Below are positions 4,770 through 56,305 of a stretch of 64,000 nt of DNA, one piece after another. Position numbers and translations under genes: made by a program. Within the stretch, counting starts at the first letter, position 1, and every line of letters begins with the position of its first letter. Below the pieces are notes generated by a model. That model searched no databases and was not told the origin of the DNA. It saw nothing but the letters and a program-made list of their open reading frames with translations. The stretch lies in contig CAWJQC010000004.1 of assembly GCA_963844965.1 (NCBI GenBank), forward strand, positions 41,609 through 105,608, read 5' to 3'. The stretch comes from an uncultured bacterium. Its GTDB lineage: Bacteria; Patescibacteriota; Minisyncoccia; UBA6257; 2-01-FULL-56-20.

Positions 4770-5033
4770 ATGAGCAACAAAAAAGGGCATCGGATTGCAA
4801 AGGAAGTGAAGGCGGACATCCTCCGCCGCGTGAAGGAAGAAGGCGTTTCGGTGGCCCAAGCCGCGAAGGACCACGGCTTGCACGAGTCCACCATCTATAA
4901 CTGGCTCGGAGCCGGAGCGGCAGGCGCTCCCTCGTGGAGCGAGTTCTCCCGCCTGCAGAAGCAGAACCGCGAGCTCTTTGAGGTGGTGGGCGAGCTCACC
5001 GTGAAGCTCTCTCAGGCCCAAAAAAAGAGTTGA
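4770..5033 (+). CDS. IS3 family transposase OrfA
   Basis: 87 aa HTH/leucine-zipper protein; ends at the slippery motif CCAAAAAAAG. Confidence 0.8.
   Translation: MSNKKGHRIAKEVKADILRRVKEEGVSVAQAAKDHGLHESTIYNWLGAGAAGAPSWSEFSRLQKQNRELFEVVGELTVKLSQAQKKS
5021..5031 (+). other. programmed -1 ribosomal frameshift slippery site of the IS3 transposase
   Basis: CCAAAAAAAG heptamer (A AAA AAG) exactly at the OrfA/OrfB overlap. Confidence 0.6.
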
Positions 5034-5812
5034 CGGAGAAACGGGACAAGTCGGCCCTGGCCAGGGCCATGGGCGTCTCACGGGCATCGCTCTACTACGT
5101 TCCGAAACAGTACGCGAAGGATTGGGCATTCAAGATCCTGATCGAGGAAGAGCTGCGGCGCCATTCCTCGTACGGCTCGCGGCGCCTGGCGCAAGCCCTC
5201 CACGCGAACCGCAAACGGACCAGGCGTGTGATGAAGCTCTTTGGCATCAAGCCATACCGGAGGCGGGGCAAGAAATATCGTAAATCAAAGGCATCGCGGG
5301 CCTTTCCGAACCTCTTACTTGCCATCATGCCCTCGTACGCGAACCACGTCTGGGCAACCGATTTCACGGAGTTCCTGTATCGCGGCAAGAAAGTGTACGT
5401 GTCCACGATACTCGATCTTTTCACGAGACGATTGATGGGCGTCCATGTGGCGTTGCGGAAAGGATCGCCCCTCACGATACAGACCCTGGCCAACGCGCTT
5501 TTCCACCATCCGCATCCGGTCATCTTCCATTCGGACAACGGCAGCGAGTACAAGGCACGAGCGTTCACCGATACACTGGGGGACTGTGGCATCACGATCT
5601 CGCGGTCGCGGCCCGGTGCCCCATGGGAAAACGGCTACCAGGAATCGTTCTATGACAAGTTCAAGATTGACCTCGGTGATCCCAACCGGTTCGGGACCTT
5701 CGGCGAGCTCGTGGCGGAGATCTACAGCACCTTGTGGCAGTACAACCACACGCGGATCCACTCCGCCCTCAAGATGCCGCCGTCCGTGTTTGCCGAGAAG
5801 ATTGCGGCTTAA
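5030..5812 (+). CDS. IS3 family transposase OrfB (DDE/rve integrase core)
   Basis: WATDFTEF, HSDNGSEY and PWENGYQESF give a D, D, E triad in rve-like spacing. Confidence 0.85.
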   Translation: MTEKRDKSALARAMGVSRASLYYVPKQYAKDWAFKILIEEELRRHSSYGSRRLAQALHANRKRTRRVMKLFGIKPYRRRGKKYRKSKASRAFPNLLLAIMPSYANHVWATDFTEFLYRGKKVYVSTILDLFTRRLMGVHVALRKGSPLTIQTLANALFHHPHPVIFHSDNGSEYKARAFTDTLGDCGITISRSRPGAPWENGYQESFYDKFKIDLGDPNRFGTFGELVAEIYSTLWQYNHTRIHSALKMPPSVFAEKIAA

Positions 5813-41436: not shown

Positions 41437-43541
41437 TTACCGTTTTTTGCCTTCGATAATCAACTGCGCAATGTTCTGCGGCACTGGCTCATAATGGTCA
41501 AATTCCATCGTGAACGCTCCCCTGCCTTGCGTCATGGAACGCAACTCGGTCGCGTAGCCGAACATTTCCGCGAGCGGAACTTTGGCGTCAATCACTTTCA
41601 CGTTGGGCCGGTCGGAAATTTCCTCAATCCTGCCGCGCTTGGAGTTCAAGTTGCCGCTCACCTCGCCCAAAAATTCTATCGGGATGATAACCTGAAGCTT
41701 CATTATCGGCTCCAATATGACCGGCTTCGCGCGCTTCGCCGCTTCCTGCAGGGCGATGGAGCCAGCAATTTTGAAAGCCGCCTCCGACGAGTCAACTTCA
41801 TGGAAAGAGCCGTCATAGAGCGAAACTTCAAGGTCGGTCATCGGGTAGTGGGCAACGACCCCCTTACTCAATGCTTCCACCACACCTTTTTCCACCGCCG
41901 GGATGAATTCGTTCGGAATGATCCCTCCCTGATATCGTCTATGAAAACAAATCCCTTGCCGCGCTCCAAGGACTTCACGCGCAGCCAGACATGTCCGTAT
42001 TGTCCGCGGCCGCCGGATTGCCTGATATATTTGCCTTCCGCCTCCGCTTCGCCCATAATCGTTTCTTTATAGGCAACCTGCGGCCGCCCCACCGAACCCT
42101 CAACACCGAACTCCCGCTTCATCCTGTCAACAATAATTTCCAGGTGCAACTCGCCCATGCCAGAAATAATCGTCTCGCCAGTTTCCAGGTCGCCCGCCAC
42201 GCGGAAAGTCGGGTCTTCTTCCGCCAAGCGGTGCAGGGCAATGCTCATTTTTTCCTGGTCGGCTTTCGTCTTCGGCTCAATGCGAATGCCGATCACCGGC
42301 TCGGGGAATATGATCTTCTCAAGCACTATCGGCGCGTCGGGACTGCAAAGCGTGTCGCCGGTCGTCGTATTCTTCAAACCGACGATCGCCGCGATATCTC
42401 CGGCATGCACTTCCTCCATTTCTTCGCGGTGGTTGGCGTGCATCCGCACCACGCGGCCGACACGTTCCTGCTGGTCCTTCTTGGAATTCAAAACGTACGT
42501 GCCGCGCTTCAAAACGCCGGAATAATTCCGGAAATAGGTTAAAGTGCCGACGTACGGGTCTGTCGCAACCTTGAAAGCCAGCGCCGAGAACGGCTCTTCG
42601 TCCTTGGGGTGCCGCACGATATCGGCGCCGCTCTTCGGGTCAATGCCCTTAACCGGAGGAAGGTCCGTCGGCGCGGGCAAATATTCCACAACCGAGTCAA
42701 GCATAAATTGCACGCCTTTGTTTTTCAGGGCCGAACCGCAAAGCACCGGCACAATTTTGTTGGCAATAACGGCTTTGCGCAAAACGCGGCGCAAATCTTC
42801 AATGTCAAGCTCAGTACCATCCAAATACTTGGTCATCAAGGCATCGTCATTGTCCACAATGCGTTCCACAAGTTCATGCCGCGCCTTCTTCACGTGCACT
42901 TTCATATTTTCCGGCATCGGAATTTCTGTAATCTTTTCGCCATGTTCACCCTCCGAGCCGTACGCCTTTTCGGTTAAGAGGTCTATCATTCCCACGAATT
43001 CACCCTCAAGGCCGATGTTCAACTGCAAAGGCAGTGCGTTCGGCGTGAGCCGTTCTTTGATTGACTGCAAACTTTTTTCAAAGCTCGCACCCAAGCGGTC
43101 AAGTTTGTTAATAAAGCAAATCCGCGGCACGTGGTACTCATCGGCATAGCGCCAGTTCGTTTCCGACTGCGGCTCAACACCTGCGACGCCATCAAAGACG
43201 ACAACCGCGCCGTCCAAAACGCGGAGCGAACGCTTCACCTCCACCGTAAAGTCAATGTGCCCCGGCGTGTCAATCAAATTTATCATATGCTCAAATTTTT
43301 TGTCGCCCTTGCGGTAAGTCGGAATCCAGAACGCCGTCGTTGCGGCGGAAGTAATCGTAATTCCCCTCTCACGTTCCTGCTCCATCCAATCCATCACCGT
43401 GTCGCCCGTGTGCACCTCGCCGATTTTGTGACTGACGCCCGTATAAAAAAGCACCCGTTCGCTCACGGTGGTTTTGCCGGCATCTATATGGGCGATGATG
43501 CCGATGTTACGGACCTTCTCGACAGGATACATTCTAGGCAT
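41437..43541 (-). CDS. fusA: elongation factor G; single-base frameshift near 41880
   Basis: N-terminal ORF has [17 protein letters not shown] and NKLD. C-terminal ORF (41437-41895) holds domains IV-V. The two overlap at 41868-41895. Confidence 0.85.
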
Positions 43542-43755
43542 TGAATTTGAATAAACTTATTTTAATTCTCGCGCATATTGATGCGGGAAAGGGGTCGGGA
43601 AAACGGGAGTTTTCCCGTATAGGAAAAAGGCCGGAGGCCGAGTTAAAAACCGAGAGGTTTTTAAGGAGCGGGTTGCTGTATAGCGACTCGCGACCGTCTA
43701 TATGCGCGATTATTCCTATATTTCTTACTTTTTCTACTGGATATTGTCGCGGCAT
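43534..43755 (-). other. upstream mini-ORF duplicating the first 20 codons of fusA ([20 protein letters not shown]), then unrelated sequence; overlaps the fusA start
   Basis: 19/20 aa identical to the true EF-G N-terminus ([20 protein letters not shown]), but 18 of 20 codons differ at synonymous sites (AT-rich codons). Followed by hairpins GGCCUCCGGCC and CGGGAAAACUCCCG(U4). Confidence 0.45.
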
Positions 43756-43763
43756 AAAATAAA

Positions 43764-44150
43764 TTATTTATCTTCTTCAACTTCCGGCAAACCTGTTCCG
43801 CCTCTCACCCCTTGGCCGCCGCTCTCCACGTAAGACATGGTGACATCGAATGCGTTCCGGAGATAAGGAATTTTGGCGGGACTGCTGTTGCCTTCCTCTA
43901 TCTCCGACCAGCTAATTTTGCCTTTTTCCAAAAGAGCGCTCAGAACTTCTATTTTTGATTTGGTGCCGAAATCCAAAACCGTTTCCGGTGGTGCATAAGC
44001 GATGTTTTTACCCTGCCGAAGCGCTTCCAATTCGTGGCGTTTCGCTCGTTCCTTATATTCTTCCAATTTTAATCGCAATTGCTTTACGCGCCGTCCGTCA
44101 GTAGGCAAAACTATCTCTAAACCACTTTTTTCGGCTTCCGGACCTTTCAT
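43764..44150 (-). CDS. hypothetical protein (128 aa) inserted between rpsG and fusA
   Basis: ORF only; charged, coiled-coil-like. Confidence 0.4.
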   Translation of the reverse strand: MKGPEAEKSGLEIVLPTDGRRVKQLRLKLEEYKERAKRHELEALRQGKNIAYAPPETVLDFGTKSKIEVLSALLEKGKISWSEIEEGNSSPAKIPYLRNAFDVTMSYVESGGQGVRGGTGLPEVEEDK

Positions 44151-44278
44151 CGTGGCAAATAATTACCGGGCGAAGTGCGCGAATGCCCTGTTCGCTTCCG
44201 CCCCCGCACCAAAGCTACGCTTGGTACGGGACTCCGCCTCTTCTAAATATCTTAAATTAAGGTGGCTACGCATTCTGT

Positions 44279-44746
44279 TTATCTGGCAAAGTGTGCAAAG
44301 GCACGATTAGCCTCAGCCATCCGGTGCATATCTAACTTCTTTTTGATTGCCGCGCCTTCATTCTTGGAAGCGGCAATGATTTCTTCCGCCAATTTGTCGG
44401 CCATGGGCTTGCCTTTGCGGCTGCGCGCAGTGCCGATTATCCAGCGGATTGCCAAAATAAACCTGCGTTCGGGGCGCACTTCAATCGGCACTTGATAGTT
44501 CGCGCCGCCGACCCGCCGCGATTTCACCTCCAATAAAGGCGAGGCGTTTTCAACGGCTTTCTCAAAAACCTTCAGGGAATCTTCTTTCGTGATTTCTTTC
44601 ACTTTATCAAACGCGTCATAGACAATTTTTTCGGCAATTGATTTCTTGCCGTCGCGCATCACGTAATTAATAAAACGCTCCACGTCTATGCGCTCATGCT
44701 TTATGTCCGGCTTGTGATATTTTTTGTAAACTCGTTTTTTGCGCAT
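44279..44746 (-). CDS. rpsG: 30S ribosomal protein S7
   Basis: ...[56 protein letters not shown]... Confidence 0.9.
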
Positions 44747-44829
44747 TGTTACATATGGTTGTCATTCCGAGCTTTGCGAGGAATCTCATGAGATCCTTCA
44801 CTTCGCTCAGGATGATGCTCTGCGGAGCG

Positions 44830-45240
44830 TCATTTCGGCCGCTTTACACCGTATTTACTGCGCTGCTGTTTCCTGTTATCCACTCCGGTCGTGTCCAAAA
44901 TTCCGCGGATAACGTGGTAGCGCACGCCCGGCAAGTCCTTCACGCGGCCGCCGCGCACGAGAACGATGGAGTGCTCCTGCAGGGTGTGGCCTTCGCCGGG
45001 AATATAAGCCGTGATTTCCATGCCGTTCGTGAGACGGACGCGCGCGACTTTGCGCAGAGCCGAGTTCGGTTTCTTCGGCGTTGTCGTGAAAACCTTGAGG
45101 CAAACGCCGCGCTTGAACGGTGAGCCGGAATCCACCGGCCGATTCTTCAGCGTGTTGAAATAATAAGACAGCGCCGGCGCCTTGGTCTTTGCTTTAAGCG
45201 GCTTCCTTCCTTTTTTAATTAGTTGACGGATTGTCGGCAT
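44830..45240 (-). CDS. rpsL: 30S ribosomal protein S12
   Basis: [12 protein letters not shown]...[59 protein letters not shown]. Confidence 0.9.
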
Positions 45241-45410
45241 CCTTAGATAATCTCCAATTTACAATACCCAATTTCCAACTAAATTTCCAGATTAACAAAA
45301 TTAGCAGCCAGCCACAGCCGCTACATTAGGAAAGTGTACAGTAAACGGCGGCCAGTGTCAAACCCACCACGCTTACCCACCGCGCCTAAGAGAGATAAAA
45401 AAAAGCCGCT

Positions 45411-46124
45411 TCAAAATCCGAAAGACTGCCCCGTGATGAGCGTGAAAAGAAACTGAATGATGGGCGCTATGAGCTGAAATCCGAAGAATACGAAAATGAG
45501 AACGAGAATCATGCCGTAGCGCTCCAGGAAATATGCCGCGCGGTAGCTCGCTTCGGTTTTCGGCAAAACGGCGAATAAAACCTTGGAGCCGTCAAGCGGC
45601 GGAATGGGAACAAGGTTGAATACGGCGAGCAGAATGTTAATAAGAGTTATCACAAAAAAAGCATATAAAATCATAGCAACTGGCGAAGTTAGTAAAGTTA
45701 AAACTAGGTCCGTTCTGCCAGAAAGCACGGCTATAGCCATATTATTTCGCAACATTTCGGATACTGGCAAAAACCGACTAGCAATTCCAAAAAAAATTGC
45801 TATTAACAAGTTTGAAGCTGGCCCAGCAACGGCGATTTTTCCAGCTCCAGAAAGAGGATCGCGCAGATTATTCGGGTTGTATGGCACGGGCTTCGCCCAA
45901 CCGAAGACCATGCTGCCTCCGGTCAAAAAATAAAGAGAAACCGGCAGCAGAAACGAGCCGAAGAAATCCAGATGTTTTATGGGATTCAAAGTCAGCCGCC
46001 CGGCGAGCCGCGCCGTGGGGTCGCCCAAGTGCTCGGCGACGACGCCGTGCGAAACCTCGTGGATTACGGCGGACATTATGAGTATCGCGAGCCAAAATAA
46101 AAAAGCGATTGTGGATGTCATATC
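45411..46124 (-). CDS. site-2 protease family (M50) zinc metalloprotease
   Basis: HEVSHG (HExxH) within a TM helix, multiple TMs, LDG motif. Confidence 0.7.
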   Translation of the reverse strand, partial: DMTSTIAFLFWLAILIMSAVIHEVSHGVVAEHLGDPTARLAGRLTLNPIKHLDFFGSFLLPVSLYFLTGGSMVFGWAKPVPYNPNNLRDPLSGAGKIAVAGPASNLLIAIFFGIASRFLPVSEMLRNNMAIAVLSGRTDLVLTLLTSPVAMILYAFFVITLINILLAVFNLVPIPPLDGSKVLFAVLPKTEASYRAAYFLERYGMILVLIFVFFGFQLIAPIIQFLFTLITGQSFGF

Positions 46125-46222
46125 AACAATAATATCCGAAAACCGCGGTCTTTGCCAATTAAGAAAAAACAAATTAAAATGAGCATGTCGCCCTCGTGGT
46201 GAAACTTGCCCTCCCACCTTTG

Positions 46223-46294
46223 TCCCTGTAGCTCAACGGATAGAGCGTGTGGCTTCGAACCACAAGGTTGCAGGTTCAAATCCTGCCAGGGACG
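46223..46294 (+). tRNA. tRNA-Arg (anticodon UCG), embedded between perfect 13 bp inverted repeats
   Basis: GUCCCUGUAGCUCAACGGAUAGAGCGUGUGGCUUCGAACCACAAGGUUGCAGGUUCAAAUCCUGCCAGGGACG. Flanks are CCCTCCCACCTTT / AAAGGTGGGAGGG. Confidence 0.85.
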
Positions 46295-46327
46295 CAAAGG
46301 TGGGAGGGTGAAGATATCATATGTGGC

Positions 46328-46375
46328 TTCGAACCACAGGTTCCAGGTTCGAGTCCTGGCGAGGGCACACACAAC
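46328..46375 (+). other. partial duplicate of the tRNA-Arg 3' half (anticodon arm through acceptor), att-like repeat
   Basis: UGUGGCUUCGAACCACAGGUUCCAGGUUCGAGUCCUGGCGAGGGCA lies 33 nt after the intact tRNA. Confidence 0.5.
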
Positions 46376-46464
46376 ATTTCGTATCGCGGCATCGTGGGGG
46401 CCGACGCTCTAGCGCGACCCCGAGAGGCCTACCGATACGGAATATCGTCCTCCTTATTTCTCTA

Positions 46465-46716
46465 TTAAGAGCCGGCAAAAATACTTTTGATAAGGCTTGT
46501 AATGCCGCCTGCTATCAGCACGATCACAAAACCGACTGCCGCATACGTAAGGGTCTTCTTCCCTTTCGAAAATTTTTCAGGATCGCCAGCCGCCGTCATC
46601 ATTTGAAACCCGCCGACAAGCACCATTATACTTGTGAGCGGCGCTGCAATATCGTAAAAAAGAAATCCCGCCACACTATTCGCGACGGACACCAAGCTGC
46701 CCCCCCATTCGTACAA
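46465..46716 (-). CDS. small two-TM protein resembling TrbC/VirB2-type conjugative pilins
   Basis: LVSVANSVAGFLFYDIAAPLTSIMVLVGGFQMMTAAGDPEKFSKGKKTLTYAAVGFVIVLIAGGITSLIKSIF. The pattern matches VirB2/TrbC pilins by eye only. Confidence 0.35.
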   Translation of the reverse strand: MYEWGGSLVSVANSVAGFLFYDIAAPLTSIMVLVGGFQMMTAAGDPEKFSKGKKTLTYAAVGFVIVLIAGGITSLIKSIFAGS

Positions 46717-46883
46717 TTTGGATCGAACGGATTAAAAAGTTGGTTGGGAGGGCACGCGGCAAAAGCTAACTTCGCGACGGTTAAGGCGCTGACTGTTATT
46801 AAAATCTTTGTTGTGCGGCGGATAATATGCATATGGATTATTATAGCATACGAGATAGCGTGGCAGAAGCCCATTTTGTTTAG

Positions 46884-48278
46884 CTATTTCTGCAAGCTCA
46901 GAATTTTATTCCTGAACGTCAACTTACTCTTGAAGCAAGATAGCAATTCGCGTTTCTCGACCGTGCTGCCCTTTTTGAGAAGATATTTTGCGTACGTTTT
47001 AAGGTCAATTTCTTTAGTGGCCGCTTTCGATCCTTCTCCCAAGACATCGTTCGCGAATTTGCGATATCGTTCCATCTCGTCTTCGAATTTCTTCTGCATC
47101 CCAATCTCACTGATATCCATCTCGTCAATGATAGCGAGAAGTTGAGCGATCAATTCCTCTTCGCGAATGTATCCGCACTTGCAATCCTTATCTTTCGAGC
47201 GTGAGCATCCATAGTACACGTACCGCGCCGTCGTTCCATCCTTGTGCGCCTTATATTTCTCGCACGCACTGATGCCCGATCCGCATAGGCCGCACGAGAT
47301 CAGTTTCGTAAACGAAAATTCCTTTATCTCCGACCTGATGACAAAATCTCGGTGCAGCTGCTCCTGTACTTTATCGAACAGCTCCCGCGAAATGATTGCT
47401 TCGTGCTTGCCGCTGTACCAGTTACCGCTCTTCAGTGGATACTCAAAGATGCCGCAGTAAAATGGATTTTTGAGGATGATATAAATATTGGATAACGAAA
47501 GCACTTTCCCATTCTTTGTTCTGAATTTGATTTCCGACTTCAGCCAATGATAAAGCTTCCGGCCCGACCATTGTTCGTCGGCGACTTTCTGGAGCATTTG
47601 CTTGATGACGGGCGCTCGCAGGGGATCAATGATAACTTCACAAGGACGGTCGGTGCTCTTCTCGTTAAGATACCCTGTCGGTGCGATAGACGGACGCAAA
47701 CCTTGTTCGCACCGCATCCGTAATCCGCGCTTCACGTTTTCCGATTTGTTATCATTCTCAAGTTTCGCTTGGCTGCACAAAATCATCAACATGAATTTCT
47801 CGCTCGGCGAGTTCGTGAATTTCTGGCTGAAGGTTCTGATCTCGATAAGTAATTTTTGATCCATCAAGTCCACCAAGCCGCCAAGGTCGCCCGCGTTGCG
47901 GCTCAAGCGATCCGGCGCCCATGTAAGGATACCGTTGAATTCGCCGGAACGAATATCAATAAGCAACTCGTTAAAAATTTTTCGCTGGCCGACAGCTTTT
48001 GCGGAATGGCTTTCCTTTCTAACTTCGGCGATCTCAAGGTTATCGCGCTCGGCGATTTTCAGCATCTCCTTTATCTGACTATCAATGGAAAGCACTTGCT
48101 GTTCCTCGCTCTCCGTACTTTTCCTCGCATAGAGGCAGTATTTTATTTTTATCGCTTCGGCCTTTGTCGCAGAAACGCCCGACTGATCCCAGCCCTTTGG
48201 TATATTTGTTATTTTCTCCATACCTAAGGGATGCCGCAACGGCGGAAGGAGTCCAGAGCATCCTTGTCGGTAACTCAA
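46884..48278 (-). CDS. large serine recombinase (integrase)
   Basis: N-terminal resolvase domain with YARKSTESEEQ (catalytic Ser), recombinase domain, Zn-ribbon CGLCG..C and coiled-coil C-terminus. Confidence 0.8.
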   Translation of the reverse strand: MSYRQGCSGLLPPLRHPLGMEKITNIPKGWDQSGVSATKAEAIKIKYCLYARKSTESEEQQVLSIDSQIKEMLKIAERDNLEIAEVRKESHSAKAVGQRKIFNELLIDIRSGEFNGILTWAPDRLSRNAGDLGGLVDLMDQKLLIEIRTFSQKFTNSPSEKFMLMILCSQAKLENDNKSENVKRGLRMRCEQGLRPSIAPTGYLNEKSTDRPCEVIIDPLRAPVIKQMLQKVADEQWSGRKLYHWLKSEIKFRTKNGKVLSLSNIYIILKNPFYCGIFEYPLKSGNWYSGKHEAIISRELFDKVQEQLHRDFVIRSEIKEFSFTKLISCGLCGSGISACEKYKAHKDGTTARYVYYGCSRSKDKDCKCGYIREEELIAQLLAIIDEMDISEIGMQKKFEDEMERYRKFANDVLGEGSKAATKEIDLKTYAKYLLKKGSTVEKRELLSCFKSKLTFRNKILSLQK

Positions 48279-48377
48279 AACTCGATATCAGGCGACGAAG
48301 GGGCAAAGAAGGCAAGCAGAGTGATTTCCCCAGCCACCCTCTTTAAGACCATTTATAAACGAGCTATAATAATTCTA

Positions 48378-49343
48378 ATGTTCAGTACCAATGCGCGACG
48401 GGTAATGTGTGTCGTTGCAGGTTTGATTTTGACTTCGCTCGCTTGGATCGGATGCGCGAATTATTTCAACTGGTACGCCGACACAATCGGTCCCGTGGCC
48501 TGGTTTGGCACCCTGTTCCTATTTGCCGCAGCAGGAGTCGGCGCCGGTCTGCTCTTCGAAAAATCGACCAGGGCTCATTATCAGTCTGCAATGACGGCAA
48601 ATCCCCAACTTAAGGAACGAATGGAAACTACTCTCGGAAGGCGCCTCAAGTTTGGCTACGTGCTTGCCGGGCTTTATGTCGCCTATAGGCTTTTCGGATA
48701 TTATCTGTTTTTTGTTCTCGGCTTCTCTTTATCTCCAGCGGCCCATCTTCAACTGATTCTTTCGGCGGTCGTTGAGGCGGTTGTCGCCTTAGTGTGTTTG
48801 TTGCTTTATTGGGAGCGCGGAGAAGATGCCAGTACGGCGAATATAAAAAAGCATTTGCTTGTCTATGTTATTTTCTTCTTCGTTCTCGCAGTGGTTGACG
48901 GTGTCGCACTGCTTGTCTTGAAGCCCGCTTCGGCGGTAGTTCAAACACCCGCAACTCTCGAATCCGCGCTCGAAGCATTTTCCGCCGAGGAATTTTCCGG
49001 GGCAGCAGCAAAAGGGGCGCAAGCGCTACAAGTAAAAGATATGGTCGGGATAGCTTCGGCGCTCCAGAAGATCAATGCTCATTTTAACCAATCATTAACC
49101 AGCGCGGATCTTTATGACATGCGGTACACCATTAATTGGGGCTTGAATGAAGCAATTGCATATTACCAATTCGAGGCCGACGATCAATCCATTTACGCTC
49201 TTCAGCTTACCGAAAATCTTGCGACCAGCAATATTGCCGAGAGTTATTATTCGTTTCCGGCAGGTAGCACCTCCGCTCTAACCGGACAGAGGTATCTCTT
49301 CGTGGCAAACGGATTCAAACGCGGCCGAAACTTTGTTCCTTGA
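48378..49343 (+). CDS. hypothetical polytopic membrane protein
   Basis: Four or more TM helices followed by a soluble C-terminal domain; no family. Confidence 0.4.
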   Translation: MFSTNARRVMCVVAGLILTSLAWIGCANYFNWYADTIGPVAWFGTLFLFAAAGVGAGLLFEKSTRAHYQSAMTANPQLKERMETTLGRRLKFGYVLAGLYVAYRLFGYYLFFVLGFSLSPAAHLQLILSAVVEAVVALVCLLLYWERGEDASTANIKKHLLVYVIFFFVLAVVDGVALLVLKPASAVVQTPATLESALEAFSAEEFSGAAAKGAQALQVKDMVGIASALQKINAHFNQSLTSADLYDMRYTINWGLNEAIAYYQFEADDQSIYALQLTENLATSNIAESYYSFPAGSTSALTGQRYLFVANGFKRGRNFVP

Positions 49344-49522
49344 TACTGCAGGTGCTTATCTCAACCTACCTATGCAATCTCCGATTATGAACGAAGACCT
49401 TTATTATCCTTTAACGGCATCTGCTCCTTCGTGGACAGTGTCCGTCCTCTTTACGAGCACTACGGAGGAGGGACAACAGCAAGTTCACGCTCTATAATAC
49501 CTTTGACGCGAATACCGAGCGG

Positions 49523-49918
49523 GTGACGACGAGTACTTACGTTCCCTCCGGAAACTATTTGCCCTTGTCACCACAATCGCCATCCGTGTCGATGAACGTT
49601 GCTCCGCCTCCCTCAAATTCCTCCCTGAAAATAATTTCTCCTGCCAACGGACAGAAATTGAAGCAGGGGTCAACATACACGATTAGCTGGCAGTCGTCTG
49701 GTGATTTCAATTTTGTCGTCGGGAATATCGTCGCTCCCGTTCCGGGCGAAGGGGGTGTAGGAATATTCCAAGCCCCCGCGACTTCAAGCCGCTATAGCTG
49801 GACCGTGCCGACCGGCTTCCCACCTGGGATGTATAAACTGGGGCTTGCGGGCAGCGATCAAGATTTTGTGAATCATAATTTTGCCTCGTCCAGTGTTTCA
49901 ATCTACATCATTCCGTAG
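49523..49918 (+). CDS. Ser/Thr-rich beta-sandwich (Kre9/KNH-like) surface domain protein
   Basis: ISPANGQKLKQGSTYTISWQSSG ... YSWTVPTGFPPGMYKLGL pattern. Confidence 0.35.
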   Translation: MTTSTYVPSGNYLPLSPQSPSVSMNVAPPPSNSSLKIISPANGQKLKQGSTYTISWQSSGDFNFVVGNIVAPVPGEGGVGIFQAPATSSRYSWTVPTGFPPGMYKLGLAGSDQDFVNHNFASSSVSIYIIP

Positions 49919-49959
49919 TAAAACTTATTTAAGATGAGACGCGGCCTTGGGACACCCTT

Positions 49960-50420
49960 TTAGTGCCTCATTTGTCTCATTTGCATAAAAAAGCCTTATT
50001 TTATGGGCATCGATTTTTCGGAATGAGACACTGCTTTGTATAAATCGGACACGTCCAGAATGGCATTTCTGTGTCCGATTTGTCCGATTTGCCTCCAAAA
50101 TGTTACACACCACAAAGTGCAAAAGTTGTGTAACATTTGTAACATTTTGAGGAAAAGCGGGGGGTTGGAACATGGGAATGGGACACGAAAAATCGACCTC
50201 TTGTGTCCCATTTGTTCCATTTTGTAGAAATGAGCCCTGCTGCGTTACGTTTGCCGCGTTACATTCCGAACGCTCAGAAATCTTTGATTTATCTACCTAA
50301 CAGGACAGCTCCCCAAAAAAGTGCCGCCCTCTCAACTTTTCACATCGCGTTACATTTGTTACATGTTACATTTGATCCCTCCGAAAACCGCGACCGTGAG
50401 CCTTCCAAGGGAAATTTGGG
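49960..50420. repeat. iteron-like direct and inverted repeat field
   Basis: Repeated GGGACAC(N)..TGTCNNATTTG units (49997, 50080-50100 tandem TGTCCGATTTGTCCGATTTG, 50200-50225). Also GTTACATTTGTTACATGTTACATTTG, TGTAACATTTGTAACATTTTG and GCGTTACGTTTGCCGCGTTACATTCC. Confidence 0.5.
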
Positions 50421-50580
50421 GTCGTCCTCAAAAACCCTTATACTGATTGCACAGGGAAAGTCCGCATCCGCGAGGGGGCACAACAAAACTATATCTTTTT
50501 AGTTACCGCACGGTTGTCGTCGAGACGCGTGAAAAACAAAAAAGGAGCTTGCAGAGCTCCTCTATCTAACTCAACCTAAC

Positions 50581-51300
50581 TCAACGGGATGCGGCGGAAA
50601 CATGGGACAGCACGTCCGCAATGGCGTTCACGAGAACTCTTAATCCGTCTCTCCGGTAGAAAATTTCCTCACCGTCTGCCGGTCCGAAGCGATCAATGTG
50701 GCGGTGAGATTTTTTCCTTATGAAACGACTGTTCGAAAGAGCGTGTAAGTTTACCCTTATGTTCTCAATCATTTTCTCGTGATAAGGGTTCTCCCTGCCA
50801 TGCCATTGCTCACAAAGGGCAATCTCGCCTTCGGCGGTCGTAAAAAACAACGACCGAAGGAAGTAATTAAAGTGACGCTCAACGGCAGTCTCAACCAATC
50901 TTTGCAACTCCGGCCCGCTTTTCGCGCTTCCCAAGACCGGTATCGCCGAGATATCGTTACCATACTTCTTTTTGGCCAAGTGGTCCCAGGCATAACCAAG
51001 AGCGATGAGCCAACGTTTGCCGTGGACGGTGGCAAGGAACACGTCGCCGTACTTCATATATAACCTTTCCGAATTATTGCCGTTGACGGCATGGTCGTCA
51101 ACGATCGCGTAGACAGATGACGGAATGGGCAACTCGATTTTCCTACGGGGACGCAATCTATAATCATCCCAAAGTCCGTGAAATACCCCGTAGGTAAGTT
51201 CCTCAGGCGTAATCAACCGCCTGAACGGATGGACAATAGAACGAAGAGCACCGTGCTTTCCTTCCAGCACTTCCTTCAGGCGTTTTCTAAAAATTTTCAT
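50581..51300 (-). CDS. hypothetical protein (about 240-274 aa)
   Basis: ORF only. Confidence 0.35.
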   Translation of the reverse strand: MKIFRKRLKEVLEGKHGALRSIVHPFRRLITPEELTYGVFHGLWDDYRLRPRRKIELPIPSSVYAIVDDHAVNGNNSERLYMKYGDVFLATVHGKRWLIALGYAWDHLAKKKYGNDISAIPVLGSAKSGPELQRLVETAVERHFNYFLRSLFFTTAEGEIALCEQWHGRENPYHEKMIENIRVNLHALSNSRFIRKKSHRHIDRFGPADGEEIFYRRDGLRVLVNAIADVLSHVSAASR

Positions 51301-51628
51301 CCGACCCCCAATCAAAAGATTTTCACTCAAACAACTGCAAGCAGTATAACGAAATTTTTTGAATTTGGCAAATTTGATATTTTTCGCCGCAGAAGCCAAC
51401 GCCACTTCTCGGCCATAAAAATATCCGCAAACGGCAACCGTTTGCGGATTTCAACTTATCGCGACGCACTCTCAACGCACCTCACGCACAAAACACGCAC
51501 CTGCCGCCAAGGAATCTCGCCCTCAGCGGCGAGAAGAAAATCTCCGGCCAATATAAAGCCCATGGATTCAAGAATTCGCGCGCGGCATTTGCAACAATTC
51601 ACTTTCACGCCGACCTTCCTTAGAATTT

Positions 51629-52648
51629 TCAATCGCGCCTCTTCAAAACAGGCGGCTGCTCCTCGCCCTTATTACCTTTATTCTCGCCGCCCTGCTGTGT
51701 CTGGTCGGTCGGCTCGCGCTTCTTAAGCGTCGGCTTTCCTTCGGTTACTTTCCTTCTGCTCGTCACAATTTGCAGCCGATCTTTCACGTCATCAAACTCG
51801 GATGTAGACACGAGATACTGGTCCTTTTTCGGAAGAATTTCCTTAATCTCCTTCTCTATTTTTATAATCCTGTCACCAGTTGGCGGATGGTCGGCAAAAA
51901 CGTTTGGCACGCTTCCGGGTATTCGCCTTTCTTCTTCAATAACCTTGGAAAACATACCTACGTAGGACTCCGGGTCGTAGCCCGCCTTATACATGTACTG
52001 CAATCCCAGATAGTCCGCCTCGGCCTCGTCGTTGCGGCTGAATTTTAAAAACGCAATAGGTATGCCAAAGTTCATGGCCTCCATAGTCGCAATGTAAACA
52101 GGATAAGACATGGGTACGAAGATAAGAGGAATTGTGGCGTATTGGAGGAGCGTGGCTTTTGTCATCTGCGACGCCCAATGCCGGCACGCAACGTGCGCAA
52201 TCTCGTGCGCCATCACTCCGGCAACCTGACTTTCTCCATCGGCAACAAGAAGCAGGCCAGAATTAATATACAAGAACCCGCCAGGGAGAGCGAAGGCGTT
52301 GATTCCGGGCGCATCTATAACTTTCACCGTAAGAGGAACTTTCAGGTCCGAATTCCGCGCAATGTTCTGAGCGACGCGGTTGACATACTCGCCCACCACA
52401 GGGTCGGTCAAAAGTTTCGCCGATTTCTCAACTTCGGTGGAGTATTGTTTCCCGATGGCAATCTCTTTTTCAATGGAAATTATTGACTTGTGCGCGACCT
52501 TGCGGTTGCCGATTTCTTCGGGGTTGTCTTTGCTCTTCTGTCCGTCCGCCGAAGCGCCATAAGCCCTGGGAGGGCACGCCATAATGGCCAAAAGGATAGC
52601 AAGAATAATTACAAGAATCAGGTATCGTTTCTTGACCGTACCGCTCAT
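51629..52648 (-). CDS. M48 family zinc metallopeptidase (BepA/YcaL-like), secreted or membrane-anchored
   Basis: HEIAHVACRH (HExxH), GINAFALPGGFLYINSGLL; N-terminal signal/TM. Confidence 0.7.
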   Translation of the reverse strand: MSGTVKKRYLILVIILAILLAIMACPPRAYGASADGQKSKDNPEEIGNRKVAHKSIISIEKEIAIGKQYSTEVEKSAKLLTDPVVGEYVNRVAQNIARNSDLKVPLTVKVIDAPGINAFALPGGFLYINSGLLLVADGESQVAGVMAHEIAHVACRHWASQMTKATLLQYATIPLIFVPMSYPVYIATMEAMNFGIPIAFLKFSRNDEAEADYLGLQYMYKAGYDPESYVGMFSKVIEEERRIPGSVPNVFADHPPTGDRIIKIEKEIKEILPKKDQYLVSTSEFDDVKDRLQIVTSRRKVTEGKPTLKKREPTDQTQQGGENKGNKGEEQPPVLKRRD

Positions 52649-52881
52649 AAGCCACCTCCTTTTCCAGATTCAACCAACTGCTTCCACTCTACCAAAAAGC
52701 GGGAAAAAATCCAGAACCTGTCCAAGTCGTTGCGGAAAGACGTTTTTGGATATAAAATAATAAAACCGGCCGCGAAGCCCGACATAATCAGCGCCATTCG
52801 GCTTAATAAAAATCCGCCCATAGCTCCCACCTTCGCCGAGGCTTCGGCGGGCAAGCAACTGGCCCCGCACCAAAATTTATC

Positions 52882-52954
52882 CGCGCGTAGCTCAACTGGC
52901 AGAGCAGCTCCCTCTTAAGGAGACGGTTGCAGGTTCGACTCCTGCCGCGCGGAC
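52882..52954 (+). tRNA. tRNA-Lys (anticodon CUU)
   Basis: CCGCGCGUAGCUCAACUGGCAGAGCAGCUCCCUCUUAAGGAGACGGUUGCAGGUUCGACUCCUGCCGCGCGGA; anticodon loop CUCUUAA. Confidence 0.8.
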
Positions 52955-53084
52955 TGGAAAAATTAAGGATAAATTTGGTGCGGGTTAGACGCCGCAGCTC
53001 TCCTCTTACAACCGCGTAGCGAGGCGAGGATAAAAATCGCCAATTTTTATTTTCGCCGAGCGAGCGGGTGGCGAAACAGGTTTT

Positions 53085-53125
53085 CGCAGGAAAAGGTTCC
53101 AGGTTCAAGTCCCTGCTTGCCAGCA
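53085..53125 (+). other. tRNA T-arm-like repeat matching the fragment at 46328-46375 (candidate att core)
   Basis: AAAGGTTCCAGGTTCAAGTCCCTGCTTGCCAG versus ACAGGTTCCAGGTTCGAGTCCTGGCGAGGGCA (21/23 identities in the core). Confidence 0.4.
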
Positions 53126-53623
53126 GGCAGGCAGGTGGGCGGACACAGAATCGAGGATCTCCGGCAGCTCACCTCTTTTTTATTGACAACACACACGTTA
53201 TTTTTTAATCTAAACAGTAGCGTCTGTTAAAAATTAAAAATCGGGAGCGGCAATGTATAGTCTGTTTGGAAGATTCGAGCGGATAGGCGAAGCGAAATAT
53301 TCCGCCGAGGAAATCTGTCTTTTCCGGTTAATCGACCTTCTATTACATCGCGGATGGAGATTCCTGGGATGCCTGTGGAACGGCAAAAAATATAAGATAA
53401 AAATAAAAAATCTCCGCACCGGCAAAAAACGCTCTTTCAAATCAGGACGCCCATATTGGCTCTCAAGCGATGCCGACGGAAATTTATTCTAACCCCACCG
53501 AATGAACAGGTGGGTTTTTGTTTTGGGGTAAATTTGGTATAATATGTGCGCGATGTGCTTGGCTCATATTGGGAAAACGTGGCGCCGGACACCGAACAAA
53601 TTCCGTTCTATGTATAAATCATT

Positions 53624-56305
53624 ATGAGTGGGATAAAAATAAATCTTTCTCTCAGCGAAATCCCAGGCATCGGCCCGCGTTTTCTGGAACGGCTGGGAAA
53701 ACTCGGCATAAAAACCGTCCGTGATCTCATTTATCATTTTCCGGCCCGCTACGAGGATTTCTCCCAGATATACAAAATTTCCGACGTTGAGCCGGGGGAA
53801 CAGGTAACAATACGTGGCGTTGTTGAAGACACCAAACTGCGGCGGACTTGGAGAAAACACATGACAATCGCCGAAGCCCTGATCCGCGACGATTCCGGAA
53901 CGATACGCGCCATCTGGTTCAACCAACCATATGTTTTGAACACTCTGCGGGTCGGGCGCACGGCGAATTTCGCAGGCAAAATATCCATATCGGACGAGGA
54001 CGAAATTTATTTGAGCCACCCGGCTTATGAAATCGTCGGCAGTCGGGAGTCGGGAACGGAGAAGCAAGAAACAAAACATACAGCGCGGCTCGTCCCCATT
54101 TATCCCGAAACGCGCGGCCTCACATCCAAGGGGTTGAGATATCTGATCCAGCCAATTCTGAAAAACAGCGAACAGCTGGAGGAATGGCTGCCGCCGGAAG
54201 TTCTGCGCGAAAATAATTTTCCCGAAATAAACCTTGCGCTCAGATCCATACACTTCCCCGAAAAAACCGAGGATGCTCTTGTCGCGAAAAAACGCTTCAC
54301 TTTTGAAAACCTGTTCCTGCTGCAACTCGCCAATCTTGAACAAAAATTGAAACTCGCGCGCGAAAAAGCGCCAGTGATCAAAACCGACATAGAACACCTG
54401 AAAAAAATGATCTCGGAACTGCCATACGAACTCACGTTTTCGCAAAAGAAATCATTGTGGGAAATCATCCAGGACCTCGCCAAAAAACAGCCGATGAACC
54501 GCCTGCTCCAGGGCGACGTGGGCTCCGGCAAGACGGTTGTCGCGGCGCTCGCCGCGGTAATTACCGCGGAAAACGGGCTGCAGACCGCGTTTATGGCGCC
54601 AACCGAGGTTCTCGCGAGACAGCATTTTGAAACATTGAAAAAATTATTCGCCGGAATTCCCTCGATCCATCAACCCGTAGTTGGGCTTCTCACGTCAAGC
54701 GAAGCAAAAATCCTCTACGCGACAGACCTTGAATCAAAAATCAAAAAACCGGAGTTGCAGGAAAAAATAAAAAACGGCGAGGTAAAAATAGCCATCGGCA
54801 CGCACGCTTTGATACAAAAAGACGTGGCGTTCGGCAATCTTGCCTTTATCATCATTGACGAACAGCATAGATTCGGCGTCTCACAACGAGCTGCGCTCGT
54901 TCGCGGACAGACGCAGAATGATAATACGCGGACAGACGCTGAACAACTACTATACGAAAAAACGACGTTTGAGATAAGAAAAAGTCTGTTTGAGGTGAGA
55001 AAACAACTGGGCCTTGGTCATAAAGAAGTGGTGTATCAGAAAGCATTGGAGGAGGAGTTCAAGAAATCCGGTGTAATATTTGAGAAAGAAAAGAAAATTC
55101 CTGTCGTTTATAACAAGAAAAAGATTGGCGTTTATCAACCGGATTTTGTCATAGATAATGAAGTAATTTTGGAACTTAAGGCTCTTCCCTTTATCGGCGG
55201 CATCGAAAAAAAACAGCTGTGGAATTATTTGAGGGGTTCGGATTACAAACTCGCGCTTATGGCAAACTTTGGACCGGAAAGATTATCCATAGAGCGGGTA
55301 GTATACGATATTGCGCGGAGTCGGCGGCTGTCAGCGTCCGGTCAGCAACTGTCCGCGCCTATCCCCCACCTCCTCTCAATGTCCGCCACGCCAATCCCAC
55401 GCACGCTCATGCTCACCGTCTTCGGCGATTTGGATATATCGCTCATCACCGAACTTCCCGCCGGCAGAAAAAATATCGTAACAAAAATAATCCCCCCACG
55501 GGGCAGGAGCGAAGCCTATGAATTCATCCGCGGCGAAGTGAGGGCCAGCCGGCAGGTTTTTGTCATCTGCCCCCGCATTGACAAACCGCAGACAGGCGCA
55601 GACCACACGCAGACAAACGCAGACAAGACACAGACAGACGCAGACAATTTTCAGCGGCTGTCTGCGTCAAGTCAGCGACTGTCCGCGTTAAGTCCACGTA
55701 AGTCCGCGTTAGTGTGGGAAGTAAGATCCGTGAAAGAAGAATTTGAAAAATTATCCAAGAAAATTTTTCCGGATTTGCGCGTCGCCATGCTCCACGGCCA
55801 GCTCAAGCCAAAAGAAAAAGCGGGTATCATGAAGGACTTCCGCAACTACAAAATAGATATTCTCGTTTCAACTTCCGTCGTGGAAGTTGGCGTGGACGTG
55901 CCGAACGCAACAATAATGATGATTGAAGGCGCCGATCGCTTCGGGCTGGCTCAGATCTACCAATTCCGCGGACGCGTGGGGCGCGGCGAACACCAATCCT
56001 ATTGCTTCCTGTTCACGGATTCGTCCGCCAAAACTACGCGCGAGCGGCTGCAGGCCGTCCTTGAAGCCAAGAACGGCTTTGAGCTCGCCGAGAAGGACCT
56101 GAAGATCCGCGGTCCCGGCGAATTCCTCGGCACGGCGCAGACCGGCTTTCCCGACACGGCGATGAGCGGCCTCATGAACCCGGAGCTCGTGAAAGCAAGC
56201 CGCGAAGCGGCGGCAAAAATCGTCCAAAAAGATCCGCTTTTCAAAAATTATCCGCTCCTGAAAACCAAATTAAACGAGTTCCGGAAGGAAATCCACTTGG
56301 AGTAG
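53624..56305 (+). CDS. recG: ATP-dependent DNA helicase RecG (893 aa) carrying two in-frame insertions
   Basis: Wedge/OB N-terminus; helicase motifs GSGKTVVA, IIIDEQHRFGV, SATPIPRTL, TSVVEVGVDVPNA, QFRGRVGRG; intact ORF. Confidence 0.85.
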   Translation: MSGIKINLSLSEIPGIGPRFLERLGKLGIKTVRDLIYHFPARYEDFSQIYKISDVEPGEQVTIRGVVEDTKLRRTWRKHMTIAEALIRDDSGTIRAIWFNQPYVLNTLRVGRTANFAGKISISDEDEIYLSHPAYEIVGSRESGTEKQETKHTARLVPIYPETRGLTSKGLRYLIQPILKNSEQLEEWLPPEVLRENNFPEINLALRSIHFPEKTEDALVAKKRFTFENLFLLQLANLEQKLKLAREKAPVIKTDIEHLKKMISELPYELTFSQKKSLWEIIQDLAKKQPMNRLLQGDVGSGKTVVAALAAVITAENGLQTAFMAPTEVLARQHFETLKKLFAGIPSIHQPVVGLLTSSEAKILYATDLESKIKKPELQEKIKNGEVKIAIGTHALIQKDVAFGNLAFIIIDEQHRFGVSQRAALVRGQTQNDNTRTDAEQLLYEKTTFEIRKSLFEVRKQLGLGHKEVVYQKALEEEFKKSGVIFEKEKKIPVVYNKKKIGVYQPDFVIDNEVILELKALPFIGGIEKKQLWNYLRGSDYKLALMANFGPERLSIERVVYDIARSRRLSASGQQLSAPIPHLLSMSATPIPRTLMLTVFGDLDISLITELPAGRKNIVTKIIPPRGRSEAYEFIRGEVRASRQVFVICPRIDKPQTGADHTQTNADKTQTDADNFQRLSASSQRLSALSPRKSALVWEVRSVKEEFEKLSKKIFPDLRVAMLHGQLKPKEKAGIMKDFRNYKIDILVSTSVVEVGVDVPNATIMMIEGADRFGLAQIYQFRGRVGRGEHQSYCFLFTDSSAKTTRERLQAVLEAKNGFELAEKDLKIRGPGEFLGTAQTGFPDTAMSGLMNPELVKASREAAAKIVQKDPLFKNYPLLKTKLNEFRKEIHLE
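54903..55357 (+). mobile_element. in-frame insertion inside recG encoding a GxxExxY-type PD-(D/E)xK domain, bounded by inverted repeats
   Basis: Left end is a tandem CGCGGACAGACGC (54903, 54927). Right end is GGCTGTCAGCGTCC...CAGCAACTGTCCGCG (55349-55357 is the reverse complement of CGCGGACAG). Encoded segment: GLGHKEVVYQKALEEEFKKSGVIFEKEKKIPVVYNKKKIGVYQPDFVIDNEVILELKA...LMANFGPERLSIERV. Confidence 0.5.
55588..55712 (+). mobile_element. second, cargo-less in-frame palindromic insertion of the same repeat family inside recG
   Basis: CAGACAGGCGCAGACC...GACAGACGCAGACAATTTTCAGCGGCTGTCTGCGTCAAGTCAGCGACTGTCCGCG. Translates as QTGADHTQTNADKTQTDADNFQRLSASSQRLSALSPRKS between conserved RecG blocks. 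Confidence 0.45.

Follow-up and report, generated by a model that had tools for sequence, protein, structure and literature searches.

How did an extra gene and a second start of fusA come to lie between rpsG, the gene of ribosomal protein S7, and fusA, the gene of elongation factor G (EF-G), in an uncultured bacterium of the candidate phyla radiation (CPR)? The locus belongs to a 64,000-nt stretch of the metagenome-assembled contig CAWJQC010000004.1, which is called the window in the following, and all its genes are on the minus strand. A first-pass annotation, made from the letters of the window alone, had proposed that it is the scar of a horizontally acquired cassette that entered by homologous exchange at fusA, or else a leader peptide or attenuator mimicking EF-G. 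The extra gene, an open reading frame (ORF) of 128 codons (ORF128), and the second fusA start are indeed there (tblastn E = 5e-9 for the latter). That the locus is a recombination scar of one kind or another is in our view very probable, and we lean towards the explanation that a block with ORF128 was imported into a lineage lacking it, the locus being the scar of an illegitimate or one-sided recombination with displacement of gene ends. The cassette part of the earlier proposal agrees with the presence of a collinear block, of fragments of both neighbouring genes and of relatives without the gene. Entry by homologous exchange at fusA does not, since a clean exchange would have replaced a gene end rather than duplicated it, and at least one junction must therefore be illegitimate.

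The block between rpsG and fusA

Read along the minus strand, the locus consists of a complete rpsG, 76 nt of spacer, the tail of a second rpsG (rpsG', 12 codons and the stop), ORF128, the head of a second fusA (fusA', 20 codons), 155 nt, and the complete fusA. The features are listed below with the source of the call in brackets; B stands for the metagenomic contig Ga0315274_10000009 (locus L004) of a relative from the Paceibacteria.

44830-45240, minus strand: rpsL (ORF list)
44279-44746, minus strand: rpsG, complete and functional-looking (S7, 155 aa; ORF list)
44203-44278, minus strand: spacer A, 76 nt, from the rpsG stop to the block
44203-44230, minus strand: hairpin CCCGTACCAAG/CTTTGGTGCGGG within spacer A
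43697-44202, minus strand: block of 506 nt with rpsG 3' end, ORF, and fusA 5' end (blastn against B)
44163-44201, minus strand: rpsG' tail, a recoded dead copy of the last 12 rpsG codons and the stop (tblastn)
43764-44150, minus strand: ORF128, 128 codons (ORF list)
43696-43755, minus strand: fusA' head, a recoded dead copy of fusA codons 1-20 (tblastn)
43534-43755, minus strand: mini-ORF of 73 codons, the fusA' head continuing through the structured element (ORF list)
41437-43541, minus strand: fusA (EF-G), complete, with its own start at 43541 (ORF list)

From 44202 to 43697 the window is collinear with positions 4949-5454 of locus L004 (81.4% identity over 506 nt, blastn), where the aligned stretch is made up of the rpsG end, a homolog of ORF128 with 131 codons (ORF131), and the fusA start, tightly packed and free of duplicates. 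The same order of rpsG, ORF, and fusA with gaps of 3-40 nt and zero duplicates is found in B, L085, L087, and L089. In the backbone, the nucleotide identity with B is 77.8% for rpsL-rpsG and 75.9% for fusA, and other relatives are closer: the window's fusA is 82.7% identical to that of L094 vs 75.9% to that of B, its rpsG 84% identical to that of L093 vs 77.8% to that of B, and its S7 90-94% identical to the proteins of L091-L095 vs 88% to that of B. The ORF block, in contrast, has its sole close relative in B. The bacterium is a CPR member of the Paceibacteria type, and its best match by S7 among species representatives is a metagenome-assembled genome of the Liptonbacteria (78% identity). 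When fusA was tested for mosaicism against B, L005, and others, no clear foreign 5' segment emerged, and for spacer A there is no homolog in any of the fetched loci.

The fusA' head and the real head (43482-43541) agree in 19 of 20 residues, as had been seen at the outset, and in 42 of 60 nt, the longest identical run being one of 8 nt (CATATAGA). The number of differing codons is 15 of 20 (14 synonymous differences and one replacement) and not 18 as originally counted. According to the codon table, the third position is G or C in 5/20 codons of the fusA' head vs 12/20 of the real head, which bears out the description of the extra head as AT-rich. The fusA' head shares 83% of its nucleotides with the fusA heads of B and L093; compared with B the values are 83% for the fusA' head and 73% for the real head, compared with L094 they are 75% for each (manual count), which gives no clear direction. 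In the first-pass annotation the duplication account was confined to this copy of fusA, and a second duplicate, the rpsG' tail at 44163-44201, was overlooked. The tail ends 12 nt upstream of ORF128, a spacing that is the same as in B, and has kept 12/12 residues with recoded codons (tblastn E = 0.001); the 8 nt between ORF128 and the fusA' head are likewise found in B and L089. Because the fragments keep their amino acids and differ synonymously, they appear to have belonged to working genes of another lineage while they diverged. A tandem duplication with subsequent drift was considered and rejected, the differences being almost all synonymous.

A second case is provided by L003, a 615-nt contig from a different sample (ERZ4903125) with a distant member of the ORF128 family (48% identity). 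Here the family ORF is followed by 32 codons of a recoded fusA head, by 86 nt without homolog in any fetched locus, and by the complete fusA. When all fetched loci were screened with tblastn, extra fusA heads were found in the window and in L003 only, which is 2/5 of the family loci with a visible fusA start vs 0/~85 of the other loci (p 0.0025).

The complete fusA of the window shows a peculiarity of its own: its frame is split into 557 + 152 codons by one G missing in a G run at 41920-41936 on the minus strand (window, CAGGGAGGG; B, CAGGGGAGG). An assembly or sequencing error is the probable cause, a true frameshift being less likely, and for annotation the break calls for checking.

The ORF128 family and its place in the str operon

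The first-pass annotation had suggested comparing the 128-aa protein and the rpsG-fusA spacer with those of relatives, and both comparisons are informative. In Pfam, NCBIfam, and PHROG no family was found for ORF128; sequence and fold searches of the PDB gave no relative, just weak helical matches, and tblastn against phage genomes gave nothing. A word-indexed search returned three relatives, and a profile search of 1.84 billion representatives (E <= 0.001) returned 275. Judged by these profile matches, the family would comprise at least 275 cluster representatives, which are unannotated. Its proteins are mostly 105-140 aa long and share the C-terminal motif GGTGLP(E/D)VE. The AlphaFold2 model of ORF128 (mean predicted local distance difference test, pLDDT, 88) is small and helical and has an extended tail, GGTGLPEVE, which is conserved. 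Proteins of 250-1800 aa also contain the domain, and in these no Pfam domain was found.

The closest members of the family are at the rpsG-fusA junction in seven lineages (the window, B, L003, L085/86, L087, L089, and L090), and one member, L088, is at another locus. The intervening "hypothetical" gene is therefore not an oddity of one genome: ORF128 can be regarded as a clade-typical gene of the str operon rather than as a one-off insertion, and from gene order the family appears to have its place between rpsG and fusA in a subclade of the Paceibacteria. It is an uncharacterised small protein kept between S7 and EF-G in several lineages, with a confidently predicted but unmatched fold.

The family genes of L090 and L088 are preceded by non-coding DNA (~980-1130 and ~150-300, respectively) that is 72% identical over about 150 nt, although the former gene belongs to the str operon and the latter has a pilus-type gene on one side and a dihydrouridine synthase gene on the other. 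This common upstream DNA might represent a leader RNA or belong to a mobile unit.

Comparison of the rpsG-fusA spacers showed that ORF128 is absent from the junction in the window's closest relatives by S7 (L091-L097) and that the contents of the junction vary from relative to relative:

L091/L092 (S7 93%): junction empty, 38-nt spacer
L093 (S7 94%): unrelated ORF of 188 codons (ORF188)
L094-L097 (S7 86-90%): PDDEXK_3 gene between perfect 15-18-nt inverted repeats
L009 (S7 68%): PDDEXK_3 gene between perfect 15-18-nt inverted repeats

Since the junction can be empty or carry a PD-(D/E)XK gene or another ORF, the site is a hot spot. There are at least four different occupants among close relatives, which means that the most conserved operon junction of bacteria, rpsG-fusA, is in this group of CPR bacteria a hot spot of gene gain. 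The PDDEXK_3 genes are at 1371-1832 in L094, at 3976-4422 in L096, and at 1402-1856 in L009. Their inverted repeats are composed of ACGAA(A/T) units and are found directly after the rpsG stop and directly before the fusA start. CGAAT units are also present in the gene-less spacers of L005 and L008 and in the spacer of L003. The PDDEXK_3 gene and its repeats may be a cassette that has an empty site or leaves a footprint.

ORF188 of L093 (1010-1576) was considered as a member of the ORF128 family and rejected (hhalign probability 0.2%). Its first codons (ATGGAAAGCC.GGAA) are the same as those of ORF131 of B.

The structured element R1 and the mini-ORF

The 155-nt spacer between the fusA' head and fusA (spacer B) contains a hairpin-rich element of about 120-140 nt, here designated R1, with the following parts and homologs:

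43575-43694, minus strand: R1 core (homologs in L004, L005, and L007)
43668-43691, minus strand: hairpin a
43643-43664, minus strand: hairpin b
43629-43639, minus strand: hairpin c, window-specific, GGCCTCCGGCC
43596-43617, minus strand: hairpin d, 9-bp stem CGGGAAAAC/GTTTTCCCG
43700-43709, minus strand: left arm of the closing inverted repeat, TCGCGCATAT, inside fusA' codons 16-19
43569-43578, minus strand: right arm of the closing inverted repeat, ATATGCGCGA, the reverse complement of which is fusA-like, (I)LAHID
L004 1132-1235, L005 1543-1646, and L007 1624-1727: R1 homologs

The whole 155-nt spacer aligns with copies by tRNA-Lys in B, tRNA-Arg in L005, and tRNA-Pro in L007, and a 36-nt core (43584-43619) is 97% identical to the site adjoining tRNA-Lys in B. 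In the two hairpins that are kept in all four copies, 8/17 pairs show compensatory changes. The predicted folds are much more stable than those of shuffles (z-scores -6.5, for the window, and -5.9), and the structure in the window is predicted at -57 kcal/mol. A scan of 43300-44400 with Rfam 15 at E values up to 10 gave no match but a 12-nt chance hit, and a scan of B's copy gave nothing. An exact-pattern search of the fetched loci and of viral contigs found no R1 beyond the window, L001 (a Logan contig that overlaps the window), and L004; a covariance model run over 37 loci and the window found its four training sequences alone.

In B, L005, and L007, R1 is between a displaced 3' fragment of the tRNA and the intact tRNA, just as in the window it is between the displaced head of fusA and the intact gene, and the orthologous tRNAs of L091 and L096 are without it. 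Direct repeats of the tRNA 3' end around R1 are exact over 16 nt in L005 and over 19 nt in L007; the one in B has diverged, with 9 nt exact and a manual count of about 20/23. In every copy, the end of the displaced fragment is repeated in inverted orientation after the core, exact over 10-13 nt, and in the window the order is accordingly fusA' head, core, inverted copy of the last 10-20 nt of the head, and intact fusA. The arms differ completely from copy to copy (TCGCGCATAT in the window, GAGGAATCGAACG in B). The common layout of the tRNA and fusA copies points to a process of gene-end displacement. Such displacement is common in the clade, and the hairpins can be assigned to an element of this kind. 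The first-pass annotation had located the hairpins and the inverted repeat TCGCGCATAT/ATATGCGCGA correctly, but they belong to a repeat element that relatives also have beside tRNA genes. R1 is, in short, an uncharacterised structured element that covaries and in every copy separates a displaced gene end from the intact gene.

On the plus strand, the reverse complement of the right arm and the first bases of the core (43565-43591) read ILAHIDAGK, and a 14-mer of this stretch, GCGCATATTGATGC, has an exact match in fusA of five unrelated bacteria. The core bases that supply the AGK codons are also present in B's copy. An inversion between the arms was considered as source of this reading and rejected, the orientation being the same in the three other copies. 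Either microhomology-guided joining has left a trace here, or the reading is a coincidence of about 1 in 2000.

A related arrangement is found elsewhere in the window, at 52881-53160, and in L091 (~925-1198) and L096 (~1290-1527). About 140 nt downstream of the tRNA-Lys there is a displaced copy of the 3' part of this tRNA, now diverged (53095-53145 in the window); the three loci have the sequence in between in common, and the arrangement looks like serial gene-end displacement at a tRNA. In an unfiltered search of 45200-54500 there was no significant R1 match, and a diverged copy at this tRNA-Lys is not claimed.

The fusA' head is the beginning of the 73-codon mini-ORF, which, as had been reported, overlaps the ATG of the real fusA out of frame; its stop TAG (43534-43536) overlaps fusA codons 2-3 (ATGCCTAG). 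That this mini-ORF has a function appears highly unlikely, be it as an upstream ORF of the leader-peptide or attenuator type or as a coupling ORF by which ribosomes would pass the element and reach the fusA start, although several features are of the kind expected. It has preserved the start context of fusA in B, remains open for 53 codons across the -57 kcal/mol structure, and stops 5 nt past the fusA ATG, a geometry that permits termination-reinitiation, and the dead head of L003 also reads on to ~20 nt before fusA. However, extensions of such length are reached in 11% of dinucleotide shuffles for the window, which is not significant, and in 51% for L003; the two extensions are unrelated in sequence; and B, L085, and L087 have no mini-ORF, so that conservation in relatives, which the first-pass annotation had named as the mark of a regulatory ORF, is not what is seen. 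A terminator scan of 43300-44300 found no terminator-like site, the "UUUU" that had been read as the tail of a hairpin being the 3' strand of the 9-bp stem of hairpin d, and there is no match to an Rfam leader family. The leader or attenuator proposal is therefore not supported. As a by-product, coupling with reinitiation at fusA would be allowed by the geometry, and nothing requires it. The 73-codon ORF should not be annotated as a gene.

Further away, a stretch of ~5.7 kb (about 46100-51800) beside tRNA-Arg (46222-46295) is missing from B and is probably an integrated element. It contains an ORF (46884-48278, minus strand) for a large serine recombinase with Resolvase, Recombinase, and zinc-ribbon domains.

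Competing explanations and known systems

The 506-nt block most likely came from a related Paceibacteria lineage in which rpsG, the gene, and fusA are tightly contiguous. The fragments would have evolved inside the working genes of this donor lineage, which would be the reason why their differences are almost only synonymous. The block would have been joined by illegitimate or one-sided (homology-anchored) recombination, with the consequence that the resident genes retained their ends and those of the import were left as dead duplicates. The fusA-side junction would lie at the hairpin-rich R1, the 73-codon ORF would be the dead fusA' head reading through R1, and the hairpins would be the stems of R1. 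The anatomy of the locus, its collinearity with B, the distribution of the family, and the homologs and covariation of R1 are observed, whereas the direction of transfer, the mechanism of joining, and the order of events are what we infer. The closer match of other relatives in rpsG and fusA, the block's sole close relative in B, and a codon comparison together provide moderate evidence that the block moved between lineages. In the codon comparison, at conserved residues, ORF128 and its homolog in B have identical codons at 69/100 positions, rpsL, rpsG, fusA, and tuf together at 529/992 (Fisher p 0.003).

Several points weigh against this explanation. The synonymous excess of ORF128 is not significant when compared with rpsL and rpsG alone (61%) nor within the four-fold or two-fold codon classes, and is partly compositional. 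The direction of transfer rests on few codons. The explanation requires either that both junctions are illegitimate or that there was a second event. Since the family is widespread at the junction, the block could be ancestral and have been lost in L091-L097, and the start of ORF188 may be the remnant of an earlier ORF128-family gene at the junction of L093. The constant link of R1 with displaced gene ends, itself seen in the four copies at hand, fits an end-replacing insertion at least as well. And the Logan contig L001 (run ERR10755942), which is identical to the window over 43589-44941, could stem from the same reads as the window and leaves the right junction (43542-43588) uncovered.

The most serious alternative, which we consider rather unlikely, is that the block is resident. 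The ancestor would have had rpsG, ORF128, and fusA arranged as in B, and two small insertions would each have brought a replacement end and displaced the native one, the first consisting of spacer A with a new rpsG tail, the other of R1 with a new fusA head, in the manner of integrative elements at tRNA 3' ends and of SXT at the 5' end of prfC. All four R1 copies have the order that this predicts (displaced fragment, core, inverted copy, intact gene); the identity of the two fusA heads is highest at the junction (13/15 nt in codons 16-20 vs 29/45 nt before, manual count); displaced tRNA-Lys 3' fragments are common, that at 53095-53145 of the window included; a large serine recombinase is encoded 3 kb away; and the 8-nt spacing of ORF128 and fusA' is that of B and L089. 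Two independent events around one gene are needed, however. Spacer A has neither a homolog nor a recognisable element in it, and the inserted DNA has no recombinase gene: there is no recombinase ORF in the 155 nt, and the nearest, 3 kb away, is in another island. L003 has another breakpoint (codon 32), no common core sequence, and no R1 copy, and it would be left unexplained why extra heads are found only beside the ORF128 family and why the nearest relatives are without the gene. More doubtful still is the further-reaching proposal that R1 is a new kind of CPR miniature mobile element that inserts at conserved gene ends (tRNA 3', fusA 5') together with a replacement gene end. The inverted target copy could then be a recognition or guide segment for a trans-acting recombinase and the fusA' head a target duplication; the ORF128 family would separately be an unrecognised translation-linked protein.

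It is very improbable that ORF128 is a selfish homing-type gene that cuts gene-less rpsG-fusA alleles and spreads by repair, the recoded flanks protecting its own locus. The fixed position of the family between two very conserved genes in seven lineages, its patchiness among close relatives, the flanking sequence that travels with it, and the presence of L088 at another locus with upstream non-coding DNA in common with L090 would agree with homing. But homing replaces flanks and does not duplicate them, the model with its extended tail is that of a small helical protein, the domain is also part of long proteins without known domains, and in ORF128 there is no motif or fold of the LAGLIDADG, GIY-YIG, HNH, or PD-(D/E)XK type. 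Least credible of all is that the assembly fused two co-occurring strains, of which a single one has the gene, into a chimera, the possible mis-join considered in the first-pass annotation. The metagenomic origin of the contig and the limits of L001, which ends at 43589 inside the element, leave some room for it. L001 is, however, identical base for base through the left junction and the block into the start of the element, while the fusA junction is not reached by it. At that sole possible mis-join point the closing stem of R1 pairs across the joint. The overlaps at the junctions (no sequence common to spacer A and the rpsG' tail on the left, 10 nt in common with the element arm on the right) are too short for a k-mer join, and L003, from an independent sample, has the same kind of structure. 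If the block was imported, as we favour, the locus is a rare readable intermediate of gene acquisition beside essential genes, in which both gene ends of the donor are preserved.

Among known processes the closest is homology-facilitated illegitimate recombination (HFIR) of transformable bacteria, in which one end of the incoming DNA is joined by homology and the other illegitimately (PMC3240628) and which has been put forward to account for displaced gene remnants elsewhere (PMC5361080). In HFIR the foreign DNA has at most one homologous anchor, the illegitimate joint is often at a microhomology (10 nt are shared at the right junction here), and remnants of flanking genes remain, as they do in the window (PMC3240628; PMC5361080). 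In the window, however, no homologous anchor is visible at either block junction, the 10-nt match on the right being to the element arm; both visible junctions look illegitimate, the process is deduced from one genome, and the host is an uncultured CPR bacterium. The orphan ends of Rhs, contact-dependent inhibition (CDI), and type VI secretion system (T6SS) loci are similar in that an incoming module displaces the resident gene end, which persists downstream, recoded and alike in its conserved part only (PMC5361080). Those systems diversify toxins under selection, whereas here the ends are those of housekeeping genes, are on both sides of the insert, and give no hint of reuse.

Elements that restore the gene end into which they insert, such as those at tRNA 3' ends and SXT/R391 at the prfC 5' end, also have the gene end directly duplicated around the insert. 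SXT reportedly supplies a new 5' coding end and a promoter to prfC. With SXT/R391 the likeness extends to the target, which is the 5' end of a gene for a translational GTPase, prfC there and fusA here (PMC2791158). Differences are that the insert in the window is ~155 nt long and has no integrase, that the heads share no identical core longer than 8 nt, and that L003 breaks elsewhere; a clean site-specific integration is therefore not supported. Miniature inverted-repeat transposable elements (MITEs), REP-like (repetitive extragenic palindromic) elements, and cis-mobilisable elements are, like R1, short, hairpin-rich, present or absent at orthologous tRNA sites, and without a protein. The terminal inverted repeats of R1, unlike those of MITEs, are not conserved between copies but reproduce the respective target, the tRNA T-arm or fusA codons 16-19, and it is the interior that is conserved and covaries. 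To our knowledge, this pattern fits none of the three classes. Compared with these systems, the rpsG-fusA locus of the window is a new variant of this kind of event, in a setting that exposes both an uncharacterised protein family and a structured element.

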